Below, piece after piece: positions 14,830 through 53,560 of a stretch of DNA of 64,000 nucleotides. Position numbers and translations under genes: made by a program. This stretch comes from an uncultured Lentisphaerota bacterium (lineage in GTDB: Bacteria; Verrucomicrobiota; Lentisphaeria; Oligosphaerales; CAITYL01). The notes beneath the pieces are model-generated. The model worked only from the letters and a program-made list of their open reading frames with translations, made no database searches and was not told where the DNA came from. Every line of letters begins with the position of its first letter. Position 1 is the stretch's first letter. Where the stretch lies: the NCBI GenBank assembly GCA_903921725.1, contig CAIXRA010000076.1:29040-93039 (forward strand). Direction: 5' to 3'.

Positions 14830-15041
14830 GCGAACACCATCAAAATCGGGGAGATGCCGTTCTCGCCTCTCTCCAAGCCCCTCTGGAGAGTAGCACTGCC
14901 ACGGGTTATTTTTAATCTCAAGGGTTGCGGACTCCGCAGGCGGATATGGCGTAAAGATTGATGCACGGTTGAGATGCCTGCGGACTCCGCTACTTTGGTG
15001 TTAAAAAAGAAAGCCGTGCATCTGGCACCCTCCGGGTGGTT

Positions 15042-31933: not shown

Positions 31934-32093
31934 GAAAAACTCCCCCAAAATCATCACCCGCTTGAACGACGGTCGGCAGAGGAAACAGAGAGAAGCCCAT
32001 TGCGGTTCTTCCCCACTCCGTTTCTTCCTGCAAGAGGTTTCCGAATTCACATCCCTTTGCGTCTTTGCGCCTTCTGTTCACATGAGGCGGGGC

Positions 32094-34451: not shown

Positions 34452-34701
34452 TTCTTCCGATCGTCCATCTTTCCGCGCTTCCACACCTCCACCTTCCCAC
34501 ACTTCGCGCTTCCATCTTTCCGCACTTCCGTTCTTCCGTCTTTCCACACTTCGCACTTCCGGCTTGCCACACTTCCGTTCTTCCGTCTTTCCACACTTCG
34601 CACTTCCGGCTTGCCACACTTCCGTTCTTCCGTCTTTCCACACTTCCGCACTTCCGGCTTGCCACGCTTCCGTTCTTCCGTCTTTCCGTTCTTCCGTTCC
34701 G
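34452..34701. repeat. Octamer-based tandem repeat with ~47-bp higher-order unit
   Basis: ACTTCCGT TCTTCCGT CTTTCCAC ACTTCGC ACTTCCGG CTTGCCAC at 34524-34570 and 34571-34617, a 48-bp copy at 34618-34665, a partial fourth copy, and degenerate octamers to the left. Confidence 0.9.
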
Positions 34702-36669
34702 TTACTTGCCCGGTTCCGCGCCCGGCGCCTGATCCTTCGTCGGAATCGCCAGATCCATGAGGTCCGGCCGCAGCTTCTTCTGCAGATCCACCTGAATCAC
34801 CTCGCGCCCCTCGGCGGCCACGACGTACTTGCGGGTGTCGCGCGTCGCCGTCTCCAGCACGTCCAGATACGAATAGAGCATGAACAGTTGCGGCGACGCC
34901 CGGTAGGCCAGAAGCTGTTTGCCGAAGCGCGCCGCCTCCGCCTCCGCGACCGCCGTGCGCTCCCCGCGGTAGCCGCGGGCCTGTGAAACCAGCGCCAGCG
35001 CGTCCGCCTCCGAGGTGAGTTTCGCGGTGACCGCGTTCTTCTCCGCCTTCAGCAGTTCCTCATGCTTCTCCTCCAGCGCGCCGACCACGCCGTCGTACGC
35101 CTTGCCGACGCGCACCGGCGGATGGATCCCCTGCAGTCCGACGAACACGATCTCGACGCCGAGCCCGAGGCTGTCGGCGGAGGCCTGGATACGGCTGCGG
35201 AGTTCGCGCCCGCCCGCCTCGCGGTCCGTCGTCAGCAACCGCCGCAGGTCCATGTTCGCCAGGTAGCGCACCACCTCGCGCGTCGCCGTATCCTCCAGCG
35301 ATTTGCGTGCGTCGCCGTGGACGAACTGGTAGGCGTAGAGATCCTTGACCTTGAAGAAGACGGGGATGGCGGCCGACATGAGGTTCAGCGTGACCGGCCC
35401 GCGCCCGCCCGCCGTCACCCCTGCCGCCGCGGCGTCCGCATCGCCGGCCACCAGGAAATTGGCCTCCGACTTGTGGTGTGCGCGGCTCCACACAATCACG
35501 CGCCCCGTCAGGTCGCCCATGAGGCTCTCGTCCAGCTTCGCGTCGGGCTTGCCGACCTCGAAGCCGATCTCCAGCGTCTGGATCTTCTCCACCGGGAAGG
35601 TGCTGATCTTCTCCAGCGGCCAGGGCAGCTTCAGGTGCAGCCCCGGCCCCACCGGCGTGCGGTCGGCGACATGCCCGGAACGGATGCGCAGCCCCGCCTC
35701 TTCGGGCTGCACGACCACGACGCAGGTCATCAGCCAGAGCGCCGCGCCCGCAAAGAGCGCGAACGGCAGCAGCGTCCGCTCCAGAAAACGGTAGAACCAG
35801 CCCTCCGACACGCGGAAGCCGAACTGGTAGTCGAGCGCCGCCGCCACGTTCGCCGCCAAGCCGCCCGGCTCGGTCAGCAGCGCCAGAATCTTGCTCTCAA
35901 AGAGCGGACGATCCTCCTCCTTCGCCCCACGCGGACGGTAGAACTCGAAGACCACGTTGGCGACCATCTCCACCCCCAGCACCATCAGTGCGACGGTGAG
36001 CGCCTTCGCCGCGCGCAGGTCGAGCTTCAGCACCCAGTCCGCCGGATGGTCCGAACGCCCCGTCTGCCAATACACCATCAGCAGCCCCGCGCCCGCCGCC
36101 GCCAGCAGGATCCCCGTGAAATGGAGCCAGGCGCCGCACGGCCGCAGCCAGCGCCCGCCCGCCTCGCGCGACACGCCGGACCAGTAGCTGCCCGCCAGCA
36201 TGCAGCCGATGAACAGCCCGAGCGCCAGCACCGCGTTCTTCAGCGGCGCCACCACGTCCACCGACCCGACCACCGGCTTGTCCCAACCGCCCAGCAACAG
36301 CCAGCCGCCGAAGGCCAGCCCCGCGCCCGCCAGCACCGCCAGCACCGGCAGCACAAATTTCTCGTAGGCCCGCCGCGTCCGCGCCGCCAGCTTCACCGCC
36401 TCGTCCGCGTTCTCGAACAGCTCGCCGCCGGTGTGCCGGCGCCGGAACTCCGCGACCGCGGCCTCCTCCTCCGCCTGCCGCCGCGCCAGGCGCAGCCGCC
36501 AGCCGCCCATCAGGGAAAGCAGCGCCAGCGCGCCCGCCGCCACCACGGCCGGCACCAGCATCGCCGACTTCGCCCCGGAGGCCAGCGCCCCGGCCAGCGC
36601 CGCCAGCACCAGCCCCGCCGCCGCCGCCACAAACGCCAGCCGCTCCGGTTGTTTCAGGTCATTTTTCAT
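34702..36669 (-). CDS. Polytopic membrane protein fused to an HflK-like SPFH domain
   Basis: About 7 N-terminal TMs, then VVVVQPEE.GL...GPGLHLKLPWP, LGVEIVFVGLQGIHPP, AEAARF...YRASP. Confidence 0.85.
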   Translation of the reverse strand: MKNDLKQPERLAFVAAAAGLVLAALAGALASGAKSAMLVPAVVAAGALALLSLMGGWRLRLARRQAEEEAAVAEFRRRHTGGELFENADEAVKLAARTRRAYEKFVLPVLAVLAGAGLAFGGWLLLGGWDKPVVGSVDVVAPLKNAVLALGLFIGCMLAGSYWSGVSREAGGRWLRPCGAWLHFTGILLAAAGAGLLMVYWQTGRSDHPADWVLKLDLRAAKALTVALMVLGVEMVANVVFEFYRPRGAKEEDRPLFESKILALLTEPGGLAANVAAALDYQFGFRVSEGWFYRFLERTLLPFALFAGAALWLMTCVVVVQPEEAGLRIRSGHVADRTPVGPGLHLKLPWPLEKISTFPVEKIQTLEIGFEVGKPDAKLDESLMGDLTGRVIVWSRAHHKSEANFLVAGDADAAAAGVTAGGRGPVTLNLMSAAIPVFFKVKDLYAYQFVHGDARKSLEDTATREVVRYLANMDLRRLLTTDREAGGRELRSRIQASADSLGLGVEIVFVGLQGIHPPVRVGKAYDGVVGALEEKHEELLKAEKNAVTAKLTSEADALALVSQARGYRGERTAVAEAEAARFGKQLLAYRASPQLFMLYSYLDVLETATRDTRKYVVAAEGREVIQVDLQKKLRPDLMDLAIPTKDQAPGAEPGK

Positions 36670-36841
36670 TCACCGCACCGCCTGTGGTTGATCTTGCCGC
36701 CCCCGCTGACGTCATCGACCTCCAAATCAACACGCGCAATCCAGTCAACGACGTCCGCACAAACTTGCCTCACACCATACCCGTTTTCCGCCGCTTCGCA
36801 ACCGCACGCGCGTGAGCGATTATCTAAAAACCCCACCGTCA

Positions 36842-37084
36842 TCAATGCGTGCAAAGCATATGCCCAAAGAAGCCAGCAAATGCCAAAAGCGCCGGGCCTC
36901 CTTGTTTGCCCTTTTCAACGAACGCACAAAACAGCAGGGACGCCATCGTGGCTCCGCAACCAAACAGCCACACAGTTCCACTGATTCTACAGCTCACGAA
37001 AAAGTGCGCAGGAACCGCCAGCAGCGAAAAACCGGCCGCAATGTACGCCAGCCGCCGCATGCCGTCTTTTCGCCATATTTCCAT
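36842..37084 (-). CDS. Small hypothetical membrane protein (80 aa), lower GC
   Basis: Three hydrophobic stretches; ATG 14 bp from the direct-repeat copy, with purine-rich AAGGA upstream. Confidence 0.5.
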   Translation of the reverse strand: MEIWRKDGMRRLAYIAAGFSLLAVPAHFFVSCRISGTVWLFGCGATMASLLFCAFVEKGKQGGPALLAFAGFFGHMLCTH

Positions 37085-37098
37085 CCCGTCCGTCCTTA

Positions 37099-37201
37099 TC
37101 CTTCGCGCCTTTGCACCTTTGCGTTTCCATCTTTAGCCACAGAGGGCACAGAGAGCACAGAGGTGTTCATCTGCGCAATCTGTGTAATCTGTGGATCACC
37201 C
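37099..37201. repeat. 103-bp direct repeat, left copy
   Basis: Matches 37851-37953 with 5 mismatches by hand alignment; contains the TGA of the pilin-like gene. Confidence 0.95.
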
Positions 37202-37840
37202 GCTTCCCGTTCCCGGCAAGACCAGGATGTCCGTCCTGCGGTTGAACCCCGGCTCCGCACTCGTCCGGAACCGGAACGGAACCTCCCGCTTGTTCTTCCC
37301 CTCGACATGCGTGTCGCCATACATGACGTTGATGAACTCGCCCTTGTGGTTGGGCGTCTTCGCCGCGTCAGTCGGACCGTTCAGCGCCTTGCAGGCGTCG
37401 GTCATCAGCGCGGTGTCGGAACCGATTTCCTCCTCCTTATACCCGCGGCCAAAGTAGTAGTAATCCATGACGTTGGCCCCGGTCAGTCTTGTTGCAACGC
37501 CCGGCACAACCCGGCCGCCGCTGCTCGGACAGTGAAACAAGCTCAGGTCCGTGATGAACTTGTCGCGGATCAGCACGTCCATGTCCAAGGCCGACGACTC
37601 CAGCGTCACCCGGCGGTATGGCAGGCGACGCGTGACGCTCCCCGGAAGCATGCCGTCGTTGTCCTGCACATACTGCTTGCAGGCCAGCCCGATCTGCCTG
37701 AGATTGTTGGAACACTTGTTGCGGTTTCTCGGCTCGCGAGTATGGCCCCCCAGGCCGGGCAGAAGCACTGCCAATAGCACAACCAGAAGCATCACCATGA
37801 CAATCACCTCCACCAACGTCAATGCACGGCTGTGTCTCAT
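37196..37840 (-). CDS. Prepilin/pseudopilin-type N-terminal cleavage protein (DUF1559-like)
   Basis: MRHSRA|LTLVEVIVMV...LLAVLLPGL, CSNNLRQIGLA..QY..DN, LFHCPS, NHKGEFINVMYGDTHV (H-X9-DG variant). Confidence 0.85.
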   Translation of the reverse strand: MRHSRALTLVEVIVMVMLLVVLLAVLLPGLGGHTREPRNRNKCSNNLRQIGLACKQYVQDNDGMLPGSVTRRLPYRRVTLESSALDMDVLIRDKFITDLSLFHCPSSGGRVVPGVATRLTGANVMDYYYFGRGYKEEEIGSDTALMTDACKALNGPTDAAKTPNHKGEFINVMYGDTHVEGKNKREVPFRFRTSAEPGFNRRTDILVLPGTGSG

Positions 37841-37850
37841 CGTCCCGCCC

Positions 37851-37953
37851 TCCTTTGCGCCTTTGCACCTTTGCGTTTCCATCTTTAGCCACAGAGGGCA
37901 CAGAGGACACAGAGGTGTTCATCTGCGAAATCTGTGTAATCTGCGGATCACCC
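37851..37953. repeat. 103-bp direct repeat, right copy
   Basis: Matches 37099-37201; contains the TGA of the HTH gene, and its end overlaps the AGGAGG RBS of the pilin-like gene. Confidence 0.95.
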
Positions 37954-38403
37954 CTTGCCCCCGCCCGCGGCTGCGTCCGGCTCCGGCGTGCGGAGCGCGT
38001 TCAGCTTGGCGGTGTCGCCGGTGATGGAGACATGGCCGCAGCGCGTACACATCCGGGAGGTGATGGGGATCAGGCTGTCTTTCAGCGTCCAGAACTTGGT
38101 CTTCTTCGGCTTGAAGTAGATCAGGCCGGTGCTGCGGACGTCCCCCTCCACCAGCTCCGTGCCGTGGCAGACCGCGCAGAACTCGCGCACGACATTGACG
38201 TTCTTGTCCGCCGGGATCAGCTTGATCACCGCGTCCAGGTCCTCCTGCAGGAAGCGCGTCGAGTCGCCGACCTTGCGCACGTTAATCTTGCCGTCGCGCA
38301 TCCAGCGGTAGATCGTCGGCTCCCCGATGTCCAGATACTCCGCCGCCTCCCGGATGCTGAACCACACCGGCCCCTGGGGTTTTTCATGGCCTGATCCGCT
38401 CAT
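37948..38403 (-). CDS. Excisionase-like (HTH_17) DNA-binding protein fused to a Zn ribbon
   Basis: FSIREAAEYLDIGEPTIYRWMRDGKI..RKVG..TRF, then CAVC...CTRCG; ATGA overlap with the DUF2330 gene. Confidence 0.85.
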   Translation of the reverse strand: MSGSGHEKPQGPVWFSIREAAEYLDIGEPTIYRWMRDGKINVRKVGDSTRFLQEDLDAVIKLIPADKNVNVVREFCAVCHGTELVEGDVRSTGLIYFKPKKTKFWTLKDSLIPITSRMCTRCGHVSITGDTAKLNALRTPEPDAAAGGGKG

Positions 38404-40046
38404 TTTTCACCTCCCGTTTCCCGCTTGCCGTCCGTCTCATGCTTGGGTGCGGTGAACATCGCCGGGCAGCCGTGCCTGTCATACACCGTGATCTGCGGCC
38501 GCCCGTCCGCCGACAGCCCGACCGTGTAGTTGCCCGGCGAGGCTTCCTCGATGGGACGGCTGCGGAATTCCTGCCAGGAGAAGCGCTCAAGATATTTTGC
38601 CCGTAACTCCGCCACACCGGCGCCGTTCGGCAGTTCTTCAACCGCCCCCCTCGCCTCGGACTCCTGCAGCCACTCCGCCCGACCGAAAACGACTCCCATA
38701 TGGGCGGTCGGCAGGCACAGTCGCAACAGAAGGCCGGCAACCAGGATGCAGGCAAACCCCGGCAGCAAAATCCGCCTGAAGTATTTCCACCCGCCTCCCG
38801 CCTGCCACAACCAGTCCTCCTTCACCCGCCCGACGCCGAGCACAAGCAGAAACAGAGAAGCCGCTCCGCCCACAAGCAGAATGGAAAACTTCCGCACGAG
38901 GCTGACGCTATAAAGCGTGGCGCGGCAGGCGGATGCCATTTTCCACACCATCACGAAATCCTGATCCATCTGGCGCGGCGTCACCGTGCCGGAAAGGCGC
39001 GTAAACACGATTCCCGCAGACACCATGCGCAGGAATTCCGGATGGCCGCAGACGCCCCCGGCAACATCGCGTGCAGACAAGATGCTTGTGTGTGCCATAT
39101 CCGCGGAGGCCCATGCCGGCGTTGCCCGCAGCGTGTCGGAAAACCATGTCTTCAGCACCGGCGCCAACGCCCGCTTCGGCCCCGCGACAAACAGGTCGAG
39201 CCACATCGGCTGCCCGGAGAGCGCCGTAAGCCGCATGGGATAGACCGCCTCCTTCGCCGGGAAGGTCACGGCCAATGGGTGCGGCGTCTGCACGCCCTTC
39301 TCCGCGAGCTGCAGGCGGACGGCCACGAAGCGCCAGCCGTCGCGGATGTACGACTCGACAATGTTGCGTCCCTGTCCCGGCAGGGCCGCCAGTTCGTTCA
39401 GCGCCAGCCATTTGTCCAGCGCCGCGGCGGAATCCGCCTTGAGCACGGCTATTTCGTAATGGCCGACCATCATGGACTGCCGGACTTCGACACCGGAAAC
39501 CGCGTAACCACCCCCGACCCCAAGCCCAATTGTCGCCATATTCGAACTACGGGAGCCGAATTCCCGGAGGTGCGGAAAAAGCAGGAGCGAAAGGAATATG
39601 GCCAGCATCAGAAAAAGGAAATTCATTTTTGCCGCCCGCCGCCGGCGGAAAAAACAGACAAACAGACAGACAATCCAAACGGCGGGAAGGATTCCCCACG
39701 CCACCCACACATTCAGGTTGAACCGATACTTGATCTCCGGCTGGAAGCAGGCGTCGAGGGTCTTGAGCAGGCCGGGGGAGGCTTCGCGGACCGAGTCGGG
39801 CTCGGCGGGCAGCGGCAGGATCCAGCCCAGGCGCTGGCTCTTGGCGTCGAGGCTCGACTCGATCACCAGCGTCTCGCGCTTCGCCGCCTCGTCCCAGACC
39901 AGCAGCGCGCGCTGCGCGGGAATCGCCGGCGGCGTCGCGACGGCGCGCTCGGGGAAGTAGCAGCCGTCCGCATGCGCGGAAGGCGCGGCTGCCGCCAGCA
40001 GGACCACCGCACACATCACAGGAAGAATGCCCAACCACCGCCGCAT
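38400..40046 (-). CDS. DUF2330-like secreted/membrane protein
   Basis: Signal peptide ending ADGCYF, QRALLVW...ETLVI, GWILPLP..P, VGHYEIAVL, WL..N, YIRDGWRFVA.RL, HPL..TF...VYPMRLT; extra TM pairs. Confidence 0.75.
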   Translation of the reverse strand: MRRWLGILPVMCAVVLLAAAAPSAHADGCYFPERAVATPPAIPAQRALLVWDEAAKRETLVIESSLDAKSQRLGWILPLPAEPDSVREASPGLLKTLDACFQPEIKYRFNLNVWVAWGILPAVWIVCLFVCFFRRRRAAKMNFLFLMLAIFLSLLLFPHLREFGSRSSNMATIGLGVGGGYAVSGVEVRQSMMVGHYEIAVLKADSAAALDKWLALNELAALPGQGRNIVESYIRDGWRFVAVRLQLAEKGVQTPHPLAVTFPAKEAVYPMRLTALSGQPMWLDLFVAGPKRALAPVLKTWFSDTLRATPAWASADMAHTSILSARDVAGGVCGHPEFLRMVSAGIVFTRLSGTVTPRQMDQDFVMVWKMASACRATLYSVSLVRKFSILLVGGAASLFLLVLGVGRVKEDWLWQAGGGWKYFRRILLPGFACILVAGLLLRLCLPTAHMGVVFGRAEWLQESEARGAVEELPNGAGVAELRAKYLERFSWQEFRSRPIEEASPGNYTVGLSADGRPQITVYDRHGCPAMFTAPKHETDGKRETGGEK

Positions 40047-40152
40047 GCACTGCCTCCGGTTTTCCGCGTGTTGAACTATCTCTTGCTGTCACCTGCTATC
40101 AAAGTATTGTCATGGCGTTGTATTTGCAAGCCGCCGGTGAAATTAAAGTGGG

Positions 40153-40194
40153 GCCGATCGGACGGATCCGACCGATCAGCCCCATCGGCCCCAT
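40153..40194. repeat. Degenerate 9-bp tandem repeat
   Basis: GCCGATCGG ACGGATCCG ACCGATCAG CCCCATCGG CCCCAT in the divergent DUF2330/aroA gap. Confidence 0.6.
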
Positions 40195-40311
40195 GCGGCG
40201 GAGCCGGCTCTTTTAGCTTTCGCGCGCGCTGCGGGAATGCACGGCTATATTTTCGCCTTGAACGGCAATCGGGAATCCTCAACGCAAACCGCAATTTAAA
40301 AGACAGCCGCC

Positions 40312-41589
40312 ATGTTTTTCCGCTGCACCGCATCCCAGCTCCGGGGCGCCGCCGCCATACCGGGTTCCAAGTCGCACACCATCCGCGCCGTGGTCATCGC
40401 CGCGCTTGCCGACGGCGAGAGCGTGATCGAGGCGCCGCTACTTTCCGCCGACGCGCAGTCGGCCGCCGCCTGCGCCGCGCAGCTCGGCGCGGAGGTGGAC
40501 ATGAGCGACGGCGGCGTCTGGCGCGTGCGGGGGTTCGGCAGCGTGCCGCGCCCGAAGTCGGACGTCCTCGACACGGGGAACTCCGGCACGACGATGAATA
40601 TCCTGCTGGGCATCTCCGCCCTGCTCCCCGCCGGCCGCGAGATCACGCTCACCGGCGACCACCAGGTGCAGCGCCGGCCCAACGGCCCGCTCGCCGCGGC
40701 GCTGAACAACCTCGGCGCCTCGGTCGTCTCCGAACGCGGCGACGGCTGCCCGCCGTTCCGCATCCGCGGCACGCTCAAAGGCGGCTTCACCACGCTCGAC
40801 GCGCCGACCAGCCAGTACCTGACCAGCCTGCTGCTCGCCTGCCCGCTGGCGGAGGGGGACACGGAAATCGAGCTGACCCGCCTGAACGAGGCGTCCTACG
40901 CGCAGATGACGCTCGACTGGCTCGCCTTCCAGGGGATCCGCACCGAACGCGACGGCTGGAAGCGGGTGCGCATCCCTGGCCGCCAGCACTACCGCCCCTT
41001 CACGCGCCGCATCCCGGCCGACTTCTCCTCCGCCAGCTTCTTCCTCTGCGCCGGCGCCATCCCCGGCAACGAGGTGCTCTGCCGGGGGCTCGACATGGAC
41101 GACTGCCAGGGGGACAAGGCGGTGGTCGGCTATCTGCGGCAGATGGGCGCGGAGATCACGCTCGGGCCCGACGGCGTCCGCGTCCGCGGCGGCCGGCTGC
41201 GCGGCATCGAGATCGACATGGACGAGACGCCGGACGCGCTGCCGGTGATGGCCGTCCTCGGCTGTTTCGCCGAGGGGACGACCGTGCTGCACAACGTCGC
41301 CCACGCCCGGATTAAGGAGACCGACCGCATCGCCGTGATGGCCGCCGAACTCCGCAAGATGGGTGCGCGGATCGAGGAGCGGCCCGACGGTCTGGTCATT
41401 CATCGAAGCGCGCTGCACGGCGCGGCGGTCGAGGGGCACGGTGACCACCGGGTCGTGATGTCGCTCGCGCTGGCCGGCATGTCCTGCCCCGGGGAAACCA
41501 CCGTCACCACTGCGGAGGCCGCCGGTGTCACCTTCCCGAACTACGCGGAACTCATGCGCAACCTCGGCGGGAAGCTGGCGGCGGAATGA
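40312..41589 (+). CDS. aroA: 3-phosphoshikimate 1-carboxyvinyltransferase
   Basis: PGSKSHTIR, GNSGTT, SQYLTSLL, DFSSA, RIKETDRI, DHRVVM. Confidence 0.96.
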   Translation: MFFRCTASQLRGAAAIPGSKSHTIRAVVIAALADGESVIEAPLLSADAQSAAACAAQLGAEVDMSDGGVWRVRGFGSVPRPKSDVLDTGNSGTTMNILLGISALLPAGREITLTGDHQVQRRPNGPLAAALNNLGASVVSERGDGCPPFRIRGTLKGGFTTLDAPTSQYLTSLLLACPLAEGDTEIELTRLNEASYAQMTLDWLAFQGIRTERDGWKRVRIPGRQHYRPFTRRIPADFSSASFFLCAGAIPGNEVLCRGLDMDDCQGDKAVVGYLRQMGAEITLGPDGVRVRGGRLRGIEIDMDETPDALPVMAVLGCFAEGTTVLHNVAHARIKETDRIAVMAAELRKMGARIEERPDGLVIHRSALHGAAVEGHGDHRVVMSLALAGMSCPGETTVTTAEAAGVTFPNYAELMRNLGGKLAAE

Positions 41590-50585: not shown

Positions 50586-50607
50586 GGGGGCTCCAAAAGG
50601 GGAATGT

Positions 50608-50650
50608 GACGGATAAGACCGATCGGACCGATCCGTCCCATCCGTCCGAT
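50608..50650. repeat. 9-bp tandem repeat filling most of the pyrG-purF spacer
   Basis: GACGGATAA GACCGATCG GACCGATCC GTCCCATCC GTCCGAT; same family as 40153-40194. Confidence 0.7.
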
Positions 50651-50653
50651 TTT

Positions 50654-52936: not shown

Positions 52937-53479
52937 TCATAATTTTTCTACTGGCCGCTCGATCAGCCCTTGGAGTTCCTGGGGAAGCATCGGCCACAAG
53001 CGGGGATGGCTTTCGACCAGCCGTGCGATGTCGCCCAGGTCTTTTATCCGTTTGCTCTGCCGCCGTTCCGCGTCACGCCAAGCCTCAATCTTCCCGCGCA
53101 AAGTGTCTTCCAGCGACGCCACCCGCATCAGGATACCATGGATGTCAGCCGCCACCGACCGACTGGGAAACTCACGATAGAACTCTTCCGTACTCAACTG
53201 AATGCTGACTTTCGAGCGGCCGAGGAAGTTTACCGACCAGGCAAATCGTTCGGACTTGAATCCCGCTTCTTCCAGCAATTTCACCGCGCGCTCGACCGCA
53301 TCAGTCGCCACGACCACGTCCACATCCCGCGTCACCATCGGTTCGGCGGCCCAGTGGTTCACGGCAACTCCGCCAATGGCGCACCATTCGATGTCCGCCC
53401 GCTCCAGGCAGTCCACCAGCCGCATGACATCGTCGGTTCCGCCGGCAGTCTGCCAGTCATAAAATTGCTTCGCTGTCAT
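52937..53479 (-). CDS. Stand-alone nucleotidyltransferase (Pol-beta superfamily, AbiEii/MNT-like)
   Basis: AIGGVAV...TRDVDVVV (GG and DxD), LRGKIEAW...R..KRIKDLGDI; GGAGG RBS before ATG 53479. Confidence 0.8.
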   Translation of the reverse strand: MTAKQFYDWQTAGGTDDVMRLVDCLERADIEWCAIGGVAVNHWAAEPMVTRDVDVVVATDAVERAVKLLEEAGFKSERFAWSVNFLGRSKVSIQLSTEEFYREFPSRSVAADIHGILMRVASLEDTLRGKIEAWRDAERRQSKRIKDLGDIARLVESHPRLWPMLPQELQGLIERPVEKL

Positions 53480-53560
53480 GACTGCCTCCGTTCGTTGTAC
53501 GCCGTCACCGGTTCGGGATTCGTTGGGCATGCCAGGGTTTTAGAAATGCGCGTGGTGTCG

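Follow-up and report, generated by a model that had tools for sequence, protein, structure and literature searches.

Two 103-nt direct repeats that box a pilin-like gene in a 64,000-nt stretch of DNA from an uncultured Lentisphaerota bacterium (the whole stretch is called the window below) contain hairpins that belong to a widespread palindrome family with arms built from phased heptamer words. The pair is probably best explained as gene-less members of this family that sit in the spacers of an operon. The initial annotation had suggested a cassette-like unit, belonging to an integron-like or repeat-mediated system for swapping surface-protein genes. It had also recommended a check for co-occurrence with GxxExxY nuclease genes, and this check was productive: in other genomes, arms of the family bracket PF13366 (GxxExxY) genes and co-occur with them. 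The palindrome family does not appear to have been described so far in literature that can be searched: full-text articles gave no account of palindromes with phased heptamers, and none of repeats surrounding GxxExxY genes.

A repeat search of the window returned one two-copy direct family (37099-37215 and 37851-37967), and together with an alignment it confirmed the pair as first described, with 103-bp copies 752 bp apart and 5 mismatches. Copy A (37099-37201) and copy B (37851-37953), both read on the minus strand, differ within a sharply bounded core of 103 nt. They are 95% identical across all of it, with the spacer and the GCAAAGG tail included, and their longest identical run is 49 nt. 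A 29-nt core pattern matched copies A and B and nothing else in the window, and had no match in 100 shuffles. The borders given in the initial annotation also agree with the sequence and the open reading frames (ORFs). Both copies open with GGG TGA TCC. This TGA, located in the first 6 nt, terminates the minus-strand gene upstream of the respective copy (the pilin gene for copy A, the HTH_17 gene for copy B). The 3' end is followed by the next ATG after 10 nt in copy B and after 14 nt in copy A. Both repeats are therefore placed as members of the family usually are, in an intergenic spacer right after a stop codon.

The three triplets of words reported for each copy were also seen by Tandem Repeats Finder, which in the plus-strand reading detected a 9-nt ATCTGTG, a 9-nt CACAGAG and an 8-nt CCTTTGC sub-array in each copy. 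Both hairpin arms of both copies had a period of 9 and 2.8-2.9 copies, and each arm contains at least three words of the CACAGA(G/T)/CTCTGTG type at the 8-9-nt period of the family. Each 103-nt repeat is a small mosaic, consisting of a gene-less hairpin, a 15-nt spacer and a GCAAAGG solo arm. The 68-nt hairpin core is found at 37132-37199 (minus strand) in copy A and at 37884-37951 (minus strand) in copy B. Its 5' arm has three CACAGAT-type words (CCGCAGATT, ACACAGATT and TCGCAGATG in copy B), and its 3' arm has three CTCTGTG words, followed by GGCTAAA. The solo arms, likewise on the minus strand, are formed by three words in 8-nt phase, GCAAAGG/GCGAAGG in copy A (37100-37122) and GCAAAGG in copy B (37852-37874), where the last word merges into the ribosome-binding site (RBS) of the pilin gene, AAGGAGG. 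GCAAAG-like words are also present in L136, an unrelated mosaic of the palindrome family. A solo GCAAAG word pair (GCGCAAAGACGCAAAGGG), with words of the type found in the tails of copies A and B, lies elsewhere in the window at 32054-32073 (minus strand), about 20 nt past the stop codon of a 390-aa SPFH gene.

The first two triplets were expected to fold into a hairpin with three stems of about 7 bp, and this was borne out by the 68-nt cores, which have stems of 7, 6 and 6-7 bp with small internal loops between them. The predicted energy was -30.6 kcal/mol for copy A (z -6.0) and -25.7 kcal/mol for copy B (z -4.65), and in either case none of 200 shuffles was as stable. The inverted arms are complementary and form one long interrupted stem, in which the last base of each word is mismatched. 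In a context of 116 nt the signal was weaker (z -2.1 and -1.4), and the best fold of copy B was a different structure. Neither copy was called as an intrinsic terminator; the stem is followed by GGCTAAAGATGG, which contains no T-tract.

Family membership was assessed with a covariance model (R1) from which the window sequence was excluded. Altogether 36 hairpins were extracted from metagenome contigs and from genomes unrelated to the window, and 30 of them were aligned (loop of at most 40 nt, one near-duplicate removed). Their arms read CACAGAG-nn-CACAGAG-nn-CACAGAG and its complement, and the closing pairs include TTCACC/GGTGAA, TTGAACC/GGTTCAA and TTTAGCC/GGCTAAA. The closing columns, which had played no role in the selection of the hairpins, covary among the 30 sequences: pair 4-97 is AU in 9, CG in 7 and UA in 2, and pair 5-96 is AU in 19 and GC in 6. 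The word columns are biased by the selection and were not counted as evidence. The covariation score of the whole structure was 0.164, compared with 0.108 in shuffles (0 of 500 reached 0.164), and it was 0.035-0.089 when the 3' partner was slid by 1-3 columns.

When both strands of the 64 kb were searched with R1 and with filters off, the model matched copy A with 38.0 bits (E 4e-8) and copy B with 33.8 bits (E 6e-7), in both cases over its full length (positions 1-85 of 85). The next locus, at 14911-15006, scored 20.9 bits, and the background did not exceed 13 bits, so that the window has two strong and one or two weak matches. The earlier view of the repeat as a structured element, and not a chance duplication, was correct. 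No Rfam family was found near the repeats, where the search returned a single match to a microRNA model, far under threshold and outside the repeats. On 18 loci of the family, Rfam gave plant or animal microRNA-precursor models alone, far below their gathering scores, as can be expected of generic long hairpins.

The palindromes are widely dispersed. The pattern (CTCTGTGNN)x3 was present in at least 119 public metagenome contigs with G+C contents from 0.36 to 0.69. Among 138 arrays, a CRCRGAG-type arm was located within 200 nt upstream in 63 and downstream in 6, and the consensus of the flanks was TTT-arm-G(T/C)(T/G)AA. We also sampled species-representative genomes in four phyla (n = 654 in total). 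The phyla were those of an Acidobacteriota, a Desulfovibrio, a Chitinophagaceae and a Streptomyces record, and the exact triple was found in 16 of 201, 24 of 151, 3 of 151 and 2 of 151 of their genomes, respectively, with counts of up to 65 per genome. A control pattern, reversed and not complemented, was absent from all 654 genomes. In a crude ORF call, 57 of the 138 arrays lay inside naive ORFs and were dropped first. Of the 47 arrays for which both neighbors were called, 27 had co-directional, 17 convergent and 3 divergent neighbors, counts that are qualitative only.

Dispersal was also apparent in lake water. Four DNA runs (X1-X4) of one lake-water metagenome study contain the stretch of the window, and their contigs were compared over the covered parts of 36300-38700; no RNA run was among the sequencing runs containing the stretch. 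Summed contig depth over the CTCTGTG arm was 3-9 times that of the flanks in all four runs. In the bin 37110-37190 the depth was 46.6 in X1 (flanks about 5-6), 21.6 in X2 (2.8), 33.2 in X3 (4.6) and 16.1 in X4 (5.2), an excess that sums all organisms in the lake samples and does not give the copy number in this genome. Many contigs with mutually unlike flanks terminate at 37132/37163 and at 37884/37915. One opposite-strand contig joint was also encountered, and was judged uninformative.

In other genomes, the phased arms are linked to GxxExxY genes. PF13366 was detected in 75 genomes of the 201-genome sample, a tally that includes one genome flagged as unpublished (G050, pattern-negative, with one PF13366 match). 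Thirty PF13366 loci from one phylum were fetched, and 27 of them had flanking inverted arms of three phased words; the 3 loci without such arms include L148, which is near a contig end. The flanking words vary from locus to locus (CACAGAG, CACGGAG, CGCAGAG, CGCCGAG, CACGAAG, CACAAAG, CACCAAG, CACAGAT, CACGGAT), and the changes occur jointly in both arms. Among the at least 119 metagenome loci, an ORF by the arm matched an ad hoc GxxExxY hidden Markov model (HMM) at L047, L061 and L089. The ORF at L047 was assigned to PF13366 (E 5.6e-41) and to TIGR04256, "GxxExxY protein" (E 1e-40). Exact CTCTGTG arms bracket or abut PF13366 matches in G121:C12, G048:C33, G032:C79, G018:C2, G429:C7 and G396:C40, and decayed gene remnants are found between the arms in L179 and L180.

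The association was also seen at the level of whole genomes. In the 201-genome sample, PF13366 was present in 13 of 16 pattern-positive and 62 of 185 pattern-negative genomes (one-sided Fisher p 2.5e-4), and in a second phylum in 19 of 24 pattern-positive and 31 of 127 pattern-negative genomes (p 5.7e-7); both p-values are too small, as the statistics ignore kinship among genomes. A survey of the PD-(D/E)XK fold gives the function of PF13366/TIGR04256 as "Unknown" (PMC3424549), and a preprint mentions the PF13366/GxxExxY domain in passing (bioRxiv 10.1101/2021.01.26.428298); the accessible text of these two sources contains no treatment of repeats. Another small ORF was noted beside an arm. 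At L179:6305-6735 (G508:C2), a 119-aa 23S-rRNA-intervening-sequence protein (PF05635, E 5e-40) is encoded directly upstream of a CTCTGTG arm, and the phased arms may accompany more than one kind of small ORF.

Signs of mobility were found in a spacer upstream of a conserved gene. At this orthologous position, genomes G114 and G215 carry a hairpin, and genomes G208 and G209 are without these approximately 105-116 nt, so that the sequence ...CAAGTTT leads directly into the ATG. The filled sites of G114 and G215 use different words, CACAGAG and CATATAG, with matching changes in both arms. No clean target-site duplication was recognized at this site, the one filled/empty site that was compared. 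In genome G203, the same orthologous spot (L176, G203:C315, about 2000-2390) is taken by a small ORF whose product begins MKKRYSML... and is hydrophobic at the N-terminus, and the spacer of these five genomes seems to be an insertion hot spot.

Serial occupancy of spacers was observed in genome G443. On its contig C24 (L178), five consecutive same-strand spacers of a conserved operon each hold one element, with pairwise identities of 74-85% among the five. The genes of this operon encode HdrC/HdrB-like, HdrA-like, MvhD-like and Fe-S proteins, a functionally coherent set of the heterodisulfide reductase (hdr) type. In the first spacer the stop codon is within the closing sequence of the element, and in the remaining four about 5-10 nt separate the stop codon from the element; the elements end 20-45 nt before the next start. 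The gene-R-gene-R-gene layout therefore follows from colonization of the spacers and need not mean that genes have been swapped. It is a habit of the palindrome family in existing operons.

These observations suggest the following picture for the window. Its hairpins would be non-autonomous members, recognizable by arms of three CACAGA(G/T)/CTCTGTG words at 9-nt spacing and by ends of the form T-n-A-n-CC / GG-n-T-n-A. The full-length relatives would be those in which a small GxxExxY gene (PF13366, PD-(D/E)XK fold) is located between such arms. By analogy with the RAYT transposases and their palindromes (see below), the nuclease may recognize the phased words and spread both itself and the gene-less hairpins. 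The hairpins would settle in short same-strand spacers, typically between a stop codon and a position just before the next RBS. The pilin gene would then appear boxed because the spacers on either side of it hold one and the same sub-type, with matching polarity. In a polycistronic mRNA, each transcribed copy is predicted to fold into a stable stem-loop of -26 to -31 kcal/mol that has no U-tract, and this may affect mRNA stability or the translation of the next gene. The repeats and their family membership were shown for the window itself, and the link to PF13366, the filled/empty site and the serial occupancy of operon spacers in other genomes; mobilization by the nuclease, activity in the window organism and the origin of this pair are inferred. 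A bolder version can be formulated, in which the repeats belong to a class of mobile DNA that is present in at least five phyla and was not found in print, GxxExxY nucleases read the 9-nt-phased heptamers and copy hairpins into operon spacers, and neighboring copies recombine so that the 752-bp pilin unit loops out and moves. Such a system would resemble integron cassettes but would need no recombinase, and we regard it as speculative and, taken as a whole, doubtful.

Several points weigh against gene-less palindromes spread by a nuclease. A six-frame HMM search (E at most 10) of the 64-kb window found no GxxExxY gene. Genomes G414 and G020, with 65 and 13 exact CTCTGTG triples, have no PF13366 match, and could contain orphan hairpin populations, be incomplete assemblies or have another partner enzyme. 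Many PF13366-positive genomes are without the exact triple, and the co-occurrence and the depth excess are subject to the reservations given with the numbers. The filled/empty site represents a gain or a loss without direction, and could equally be due to deletion. The arm types in the window copies differ, as CACAGAT faces CTCTGTG and produces one T-C mismatch per word. With a strict pattern, two adjacent CRCRGAT words were found upstream in none of the 138 metagenome arrays; CACAGAT words do exist as a matched pair of arms around a nuclease gene at L169. Finally, the composite is unique so far, with at most about 30-33 nt (the 3' arm and GCTAA) common to any fetched locus. The 18-mer of the loop had 10 scattered single matches in unrelated taxa among species-representative genomes, which we took as chance. 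The 103-nt unit may exist solely as this pair, which favors a local duplication as the source of the pair.

The main rival for the origin of the pair is a local, repeat-mediated gain of the pilin gene. According to this explanation, the ancestral order was HTH gene, repeat, 80-aa gene, and a circle carrying the pilin gene and one repeat was integrated by homologous recombination (RecA-type), so that the pilin gene came to lie between two repeats. The hairpin would still be a member of the family, the pair would result from one event and not from two insertions, and renewed excision of the unit as a 752-bp circle would be possible. The 95% identity of the copies speaks for such an event, as it holds for the full 103 nt, spacer and GCAAAGG tail included, and the other fetched loci share at most about 33 nt with the copies. 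The pilin is also a rare paralogue, with 3 relatives at E of 1e-5 or below (the closest 51% identical), and its gene has a slightly lower G+C content than the rest of the window (0.611 versus 0.658). In run X2, one 649-nt contig joins 37856 to 37105 and thus connects the 5' end of the pilin gene via a repeat to the 3' half of the pilin gene, which is the junction expected from a circle or a tandem duplicate. However, this joint falls within the run of 49 identical nucleotides, a length that exceeds the word used by the assembler. The joint was seen in one of the four runs, at a depth of 2.8, and the true left path (37061-37104) was almost uncovered there, so that an assembly-graph artefact is at least as likely. 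The search for an empty allele, recommended in the initial annotation, was negative: no lake-water contig of the four runs joins across the pilin gene, although contigs drop rare variants. Moreover, similar copies in adjacent spacers arise in this family without gene gain. A repeat-mediated gain is possible, and we consider it rather unlikely.

Little can be said for the integron-like system of the initial annotation, in which the repeats would be attC-like sites for a site-specific recombinase that moves single surface-protein genes. Bulged hairpins do separate single genes in one orientation, and the boxed gene looks accessory. The annotation had itself pointed out that attC boxes were not evident and that no integrase was nearby, and both statements held: there is no GTTRRRY/RYYYAAC box on either strand of either copy, and a Pfam scan of 46 window proteins identified no integrase, tyrosine or serine recombinase, transposase or PD-(D/E)XK protein. 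The scan covered 45 of the 52 ORFs that were called in the 64 kb by a simple greedy rule based on third-position G+C (GC3), and in addition the 80-aa ORF downstream of copy A; the 7 omitted ORFs are all shorter than 100 aa. The arms are conserved in sequence across phyla, unlike attC sites, copies of the family lie inside conserved functional operons, and the partner gene elsewhere encodes a protein of the PD-(D/E)XK fold, not an integrase. With neither attC boxes nor an integrase, with no transposase or PF13366 in the window and no contig across an empty site, the integron-like system was not supported, and we consider it highly improbable.

A cis-regulatory RNA is a further alternative. In this case, the pyrimidine-rich CCUCUGUG arm would pair either with the CACAGAU arm or with the purine-rich GCAAAGG/AAGGAGG tail at the RBS, and would serve coupled translation or protection against 3' exonucleases. 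The minimum free energy structure of copy B in 116 nt indeed pairs the CUCUGUG arm with the GCAAAGG/AGGAGGG tail, at an energy equal to that of the hairpin fold of copy A (-37 kcal/mol). The stop codon is 2 nt from the base of the hairpin, and a terminator U-tract is missing. A translational effect of the alternative fold predicted for copy B is conceivable. However, the alternative pairing rests on two sequences, too few for covariation, and the GCAAAGG tail is missing in most family members. An operon-specific switch would not be expected to have words conserved in sequence across phyla or to be linked to a nuclease gene, and the region around the repeats has no Rfam match. We therefore consider a dedicated regulatory RNA improbable, and retain gene-less palindromes in operon spacers as the preferred explanation.

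The family can be compared with several known systems. Repetitive extragenic palindromic (REP) sequences and REPINs go together with RAYT transposases (TnpA-REP, of the HUH Y1 type), and bacterial interspersed mosaic elements (BIMEs) are mosaics of enterobacteria. The window family resembles them in that its members are short extragenic palindromes, present in many copies per genome and mostly 3' of genes (3 of 47 arrays between divergent genes in the crude ORF call). Copies without a gene are far more numerous than those flanking a single enzyme gene, and different modules form mosaics. The differences are equally clear. REPs are species-specific, whereas the phased words are nearly identical across phyla. 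A REP is one palindrome of 20-40 nt, whereas the arms of the window family are three heptamer words with a period of 9 nt. The bracketed gene belongs to PF13366/TIGR04256, of the PD-(D/E)XK fold, and not to the HUH transposases, and no PF01797 (HUH Y1 transposase) gene was found among the Pfam-scanned proteins of the window. REP palindromes have a GTAG or CGTC tetranucleotide tag at one end, according to the abstract of PMC3733652, whereas the 103 nt contain neither GTAG nor CGTC, nor their complements.

Integron attC sites share with the repeats the imperfect, bulged hairpins between single promoterless genes in one orientation. The repeats have no R and L core boxes, and the Pfam-scanned ORFs of the 64 kb include no integrase. 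Also, attC sites are conserved in structure only, whereas the arms of the window family are conserved in sequence and its copies reside in ordinary conserved operons. Miniature inverted-repeat transposable elements (MITEs) and Rickettsia palindromic elements (RPEs) are small non-autonomous palindromic insertions. As with these, there are filled and empty orthologous sites, and the elements are tolerated beside or inside coding sequence (here, the stop codon is in the element). Inverted ends are present, and neither the window copies nor the one filled/empty site gave evidence of a target-site duplication. In contrast to MITEs and RPEs, the inverted ends are internally periodic, and there is no DDE transposase partner. 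The intervening-sequence ORFs of 23S rRNA (PF05635) are brought to mind by the PF05635 ORF right upstream of the CTCTGTG arm at L179, but the window copies are without an ORF and are not in rRNA.

The repeats are part of a string of minus-strand genes, in the order DUF2330 gene, HTH_17 gene, repeat B, pilin gene, repeat A, 80-aa ORF and, after about 170 nt, three SPFH/Band-7 genes. The boxed gene (37196-37840, minus strand) encodes a 214-aa DUF1559-type prepilin-like protein (Pfam PF07596, E 5.9e-6). An ATG inside repeat B (in AAAGATGGAAAC, 37882) is in frame with the pilin, and the region 37841-37882 could add a 14-residue N-terminal extension, METQRCKGAKEGGT, before the prepilin-like start MRHSRALTLVEV. 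The equivalent ATG in repeat A is out of frame relative to the 80-aa ORF. The upstream gene (37948-38403, minus strand), with its TGA stop codon inside copy B, encodes a 151-aa HTH_17 protein (Pfam PF12728, E 3.7e-13). Its nearest Atlas clusters are mainly from Verrucomicrobiota and also from Planctomycetota, consistent with the DUF1559 pilin. The C-terminal half of this protein has two CxxC pairs (CAVCHG ... CTRCGH) and is zinc ribbon-like. The downstream gene (36842-37084, minus strand) encodes an 80-aa hydrophobic protein without a Pfam family. The string begins with the gene of a 548-aa DUF2330 protein (38400-40046, minus strand), the end of which overlaps the HTH_17 start by 4 nt. A single sigma-70-like site was detected in 36500-40400, upstream of the DUF2330 gene, and the DUF2330, HTH_17, pilin and 80-aa genes look like one transcription unit, on weak evidence.

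Two further ideas about this region were discarded. A tandem duplication of a repeat-plus-gene unit was rejected because the pilin and the 80-aa protein have no real similarity (22% identity over 50 aa, E 0.04, in a single comparison). A horizontally acquired island was rejected because the G+C content of the block 36700-40300 is lower by too small a margin (0.617 versus 0.658). Elsewhere in the window, Pfam matches were to housekeeping proteins, namely a miaA-type isopentenyl pyrophosphate (IPP) transferase, argininosuccinate lyase, 5-enolpyruvylshikimate-3-phosphate (EPSP) synthase, an MgsA-type ATPase, CTP synthase and aspartyl-tRNA synthetase. An ORF at 52937-53527 has a partial match to an AbiEii toxin-type nucleotidyltransferase (E 2e-6) and lies beside a 180-aa ORF without an assigned family; the two may be a type IV toxin-antitoxin pair.

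Other hairpins and phased arrays were noted in the window. The third, weaker family-like hairpin (14911-15006, minus strand) occupies the gap that separates argH from the gene of a SpoU methylase, and was matched by R1 on both strands, at 20.9 and 16 bits. It uses other words (ACCAAAG / GCGGAGT / CCGCAGG) and has a predicted fold of -33.4 kcal/mol (z -5.2). A small perfect hairpin of GACGGAT-type words is located at 50602-50652, just 3' of the CTP synthase gene, with a weak R1 match (13.3 bits, E 0.26) and a fold of -27.7 kcal/mol (z -4.8). The spacer between two SPFH/Band-7 genes is occupied by a 250-nt purine-rich tandem array (34454-34700, minus strand) of 8-nt-phased GGAAG/GGAAAG words with higher periods of 16, 24 and 47 nt, which could represent phased words of this type in expanded form. 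Another phased array, at 2625-2660, is inside a long ORF of the IPP transferase family.

The palindromes have consequences for genome annotation. They provide stop codons and abut RBSs inside operons, they create false ORFs with translations of the HRGHRG or LCALC type, and they break short-read assemblies; ordinary genes next to them can look like cassettes. The window contributes to the family a probable example from Verrucomicrobiota, in which the arms differ in word type and a solo arm is fused to the hairpin, but it does not contribute the enzyme. If nucleases do drive these palindromes, this would provide a function for PF13366/TIGR04256, a large protein family. It would also reveal a system that resembles REP and RAYT, with a different enzyme fold and a recognition word that is unusually conserved across distant phyla.

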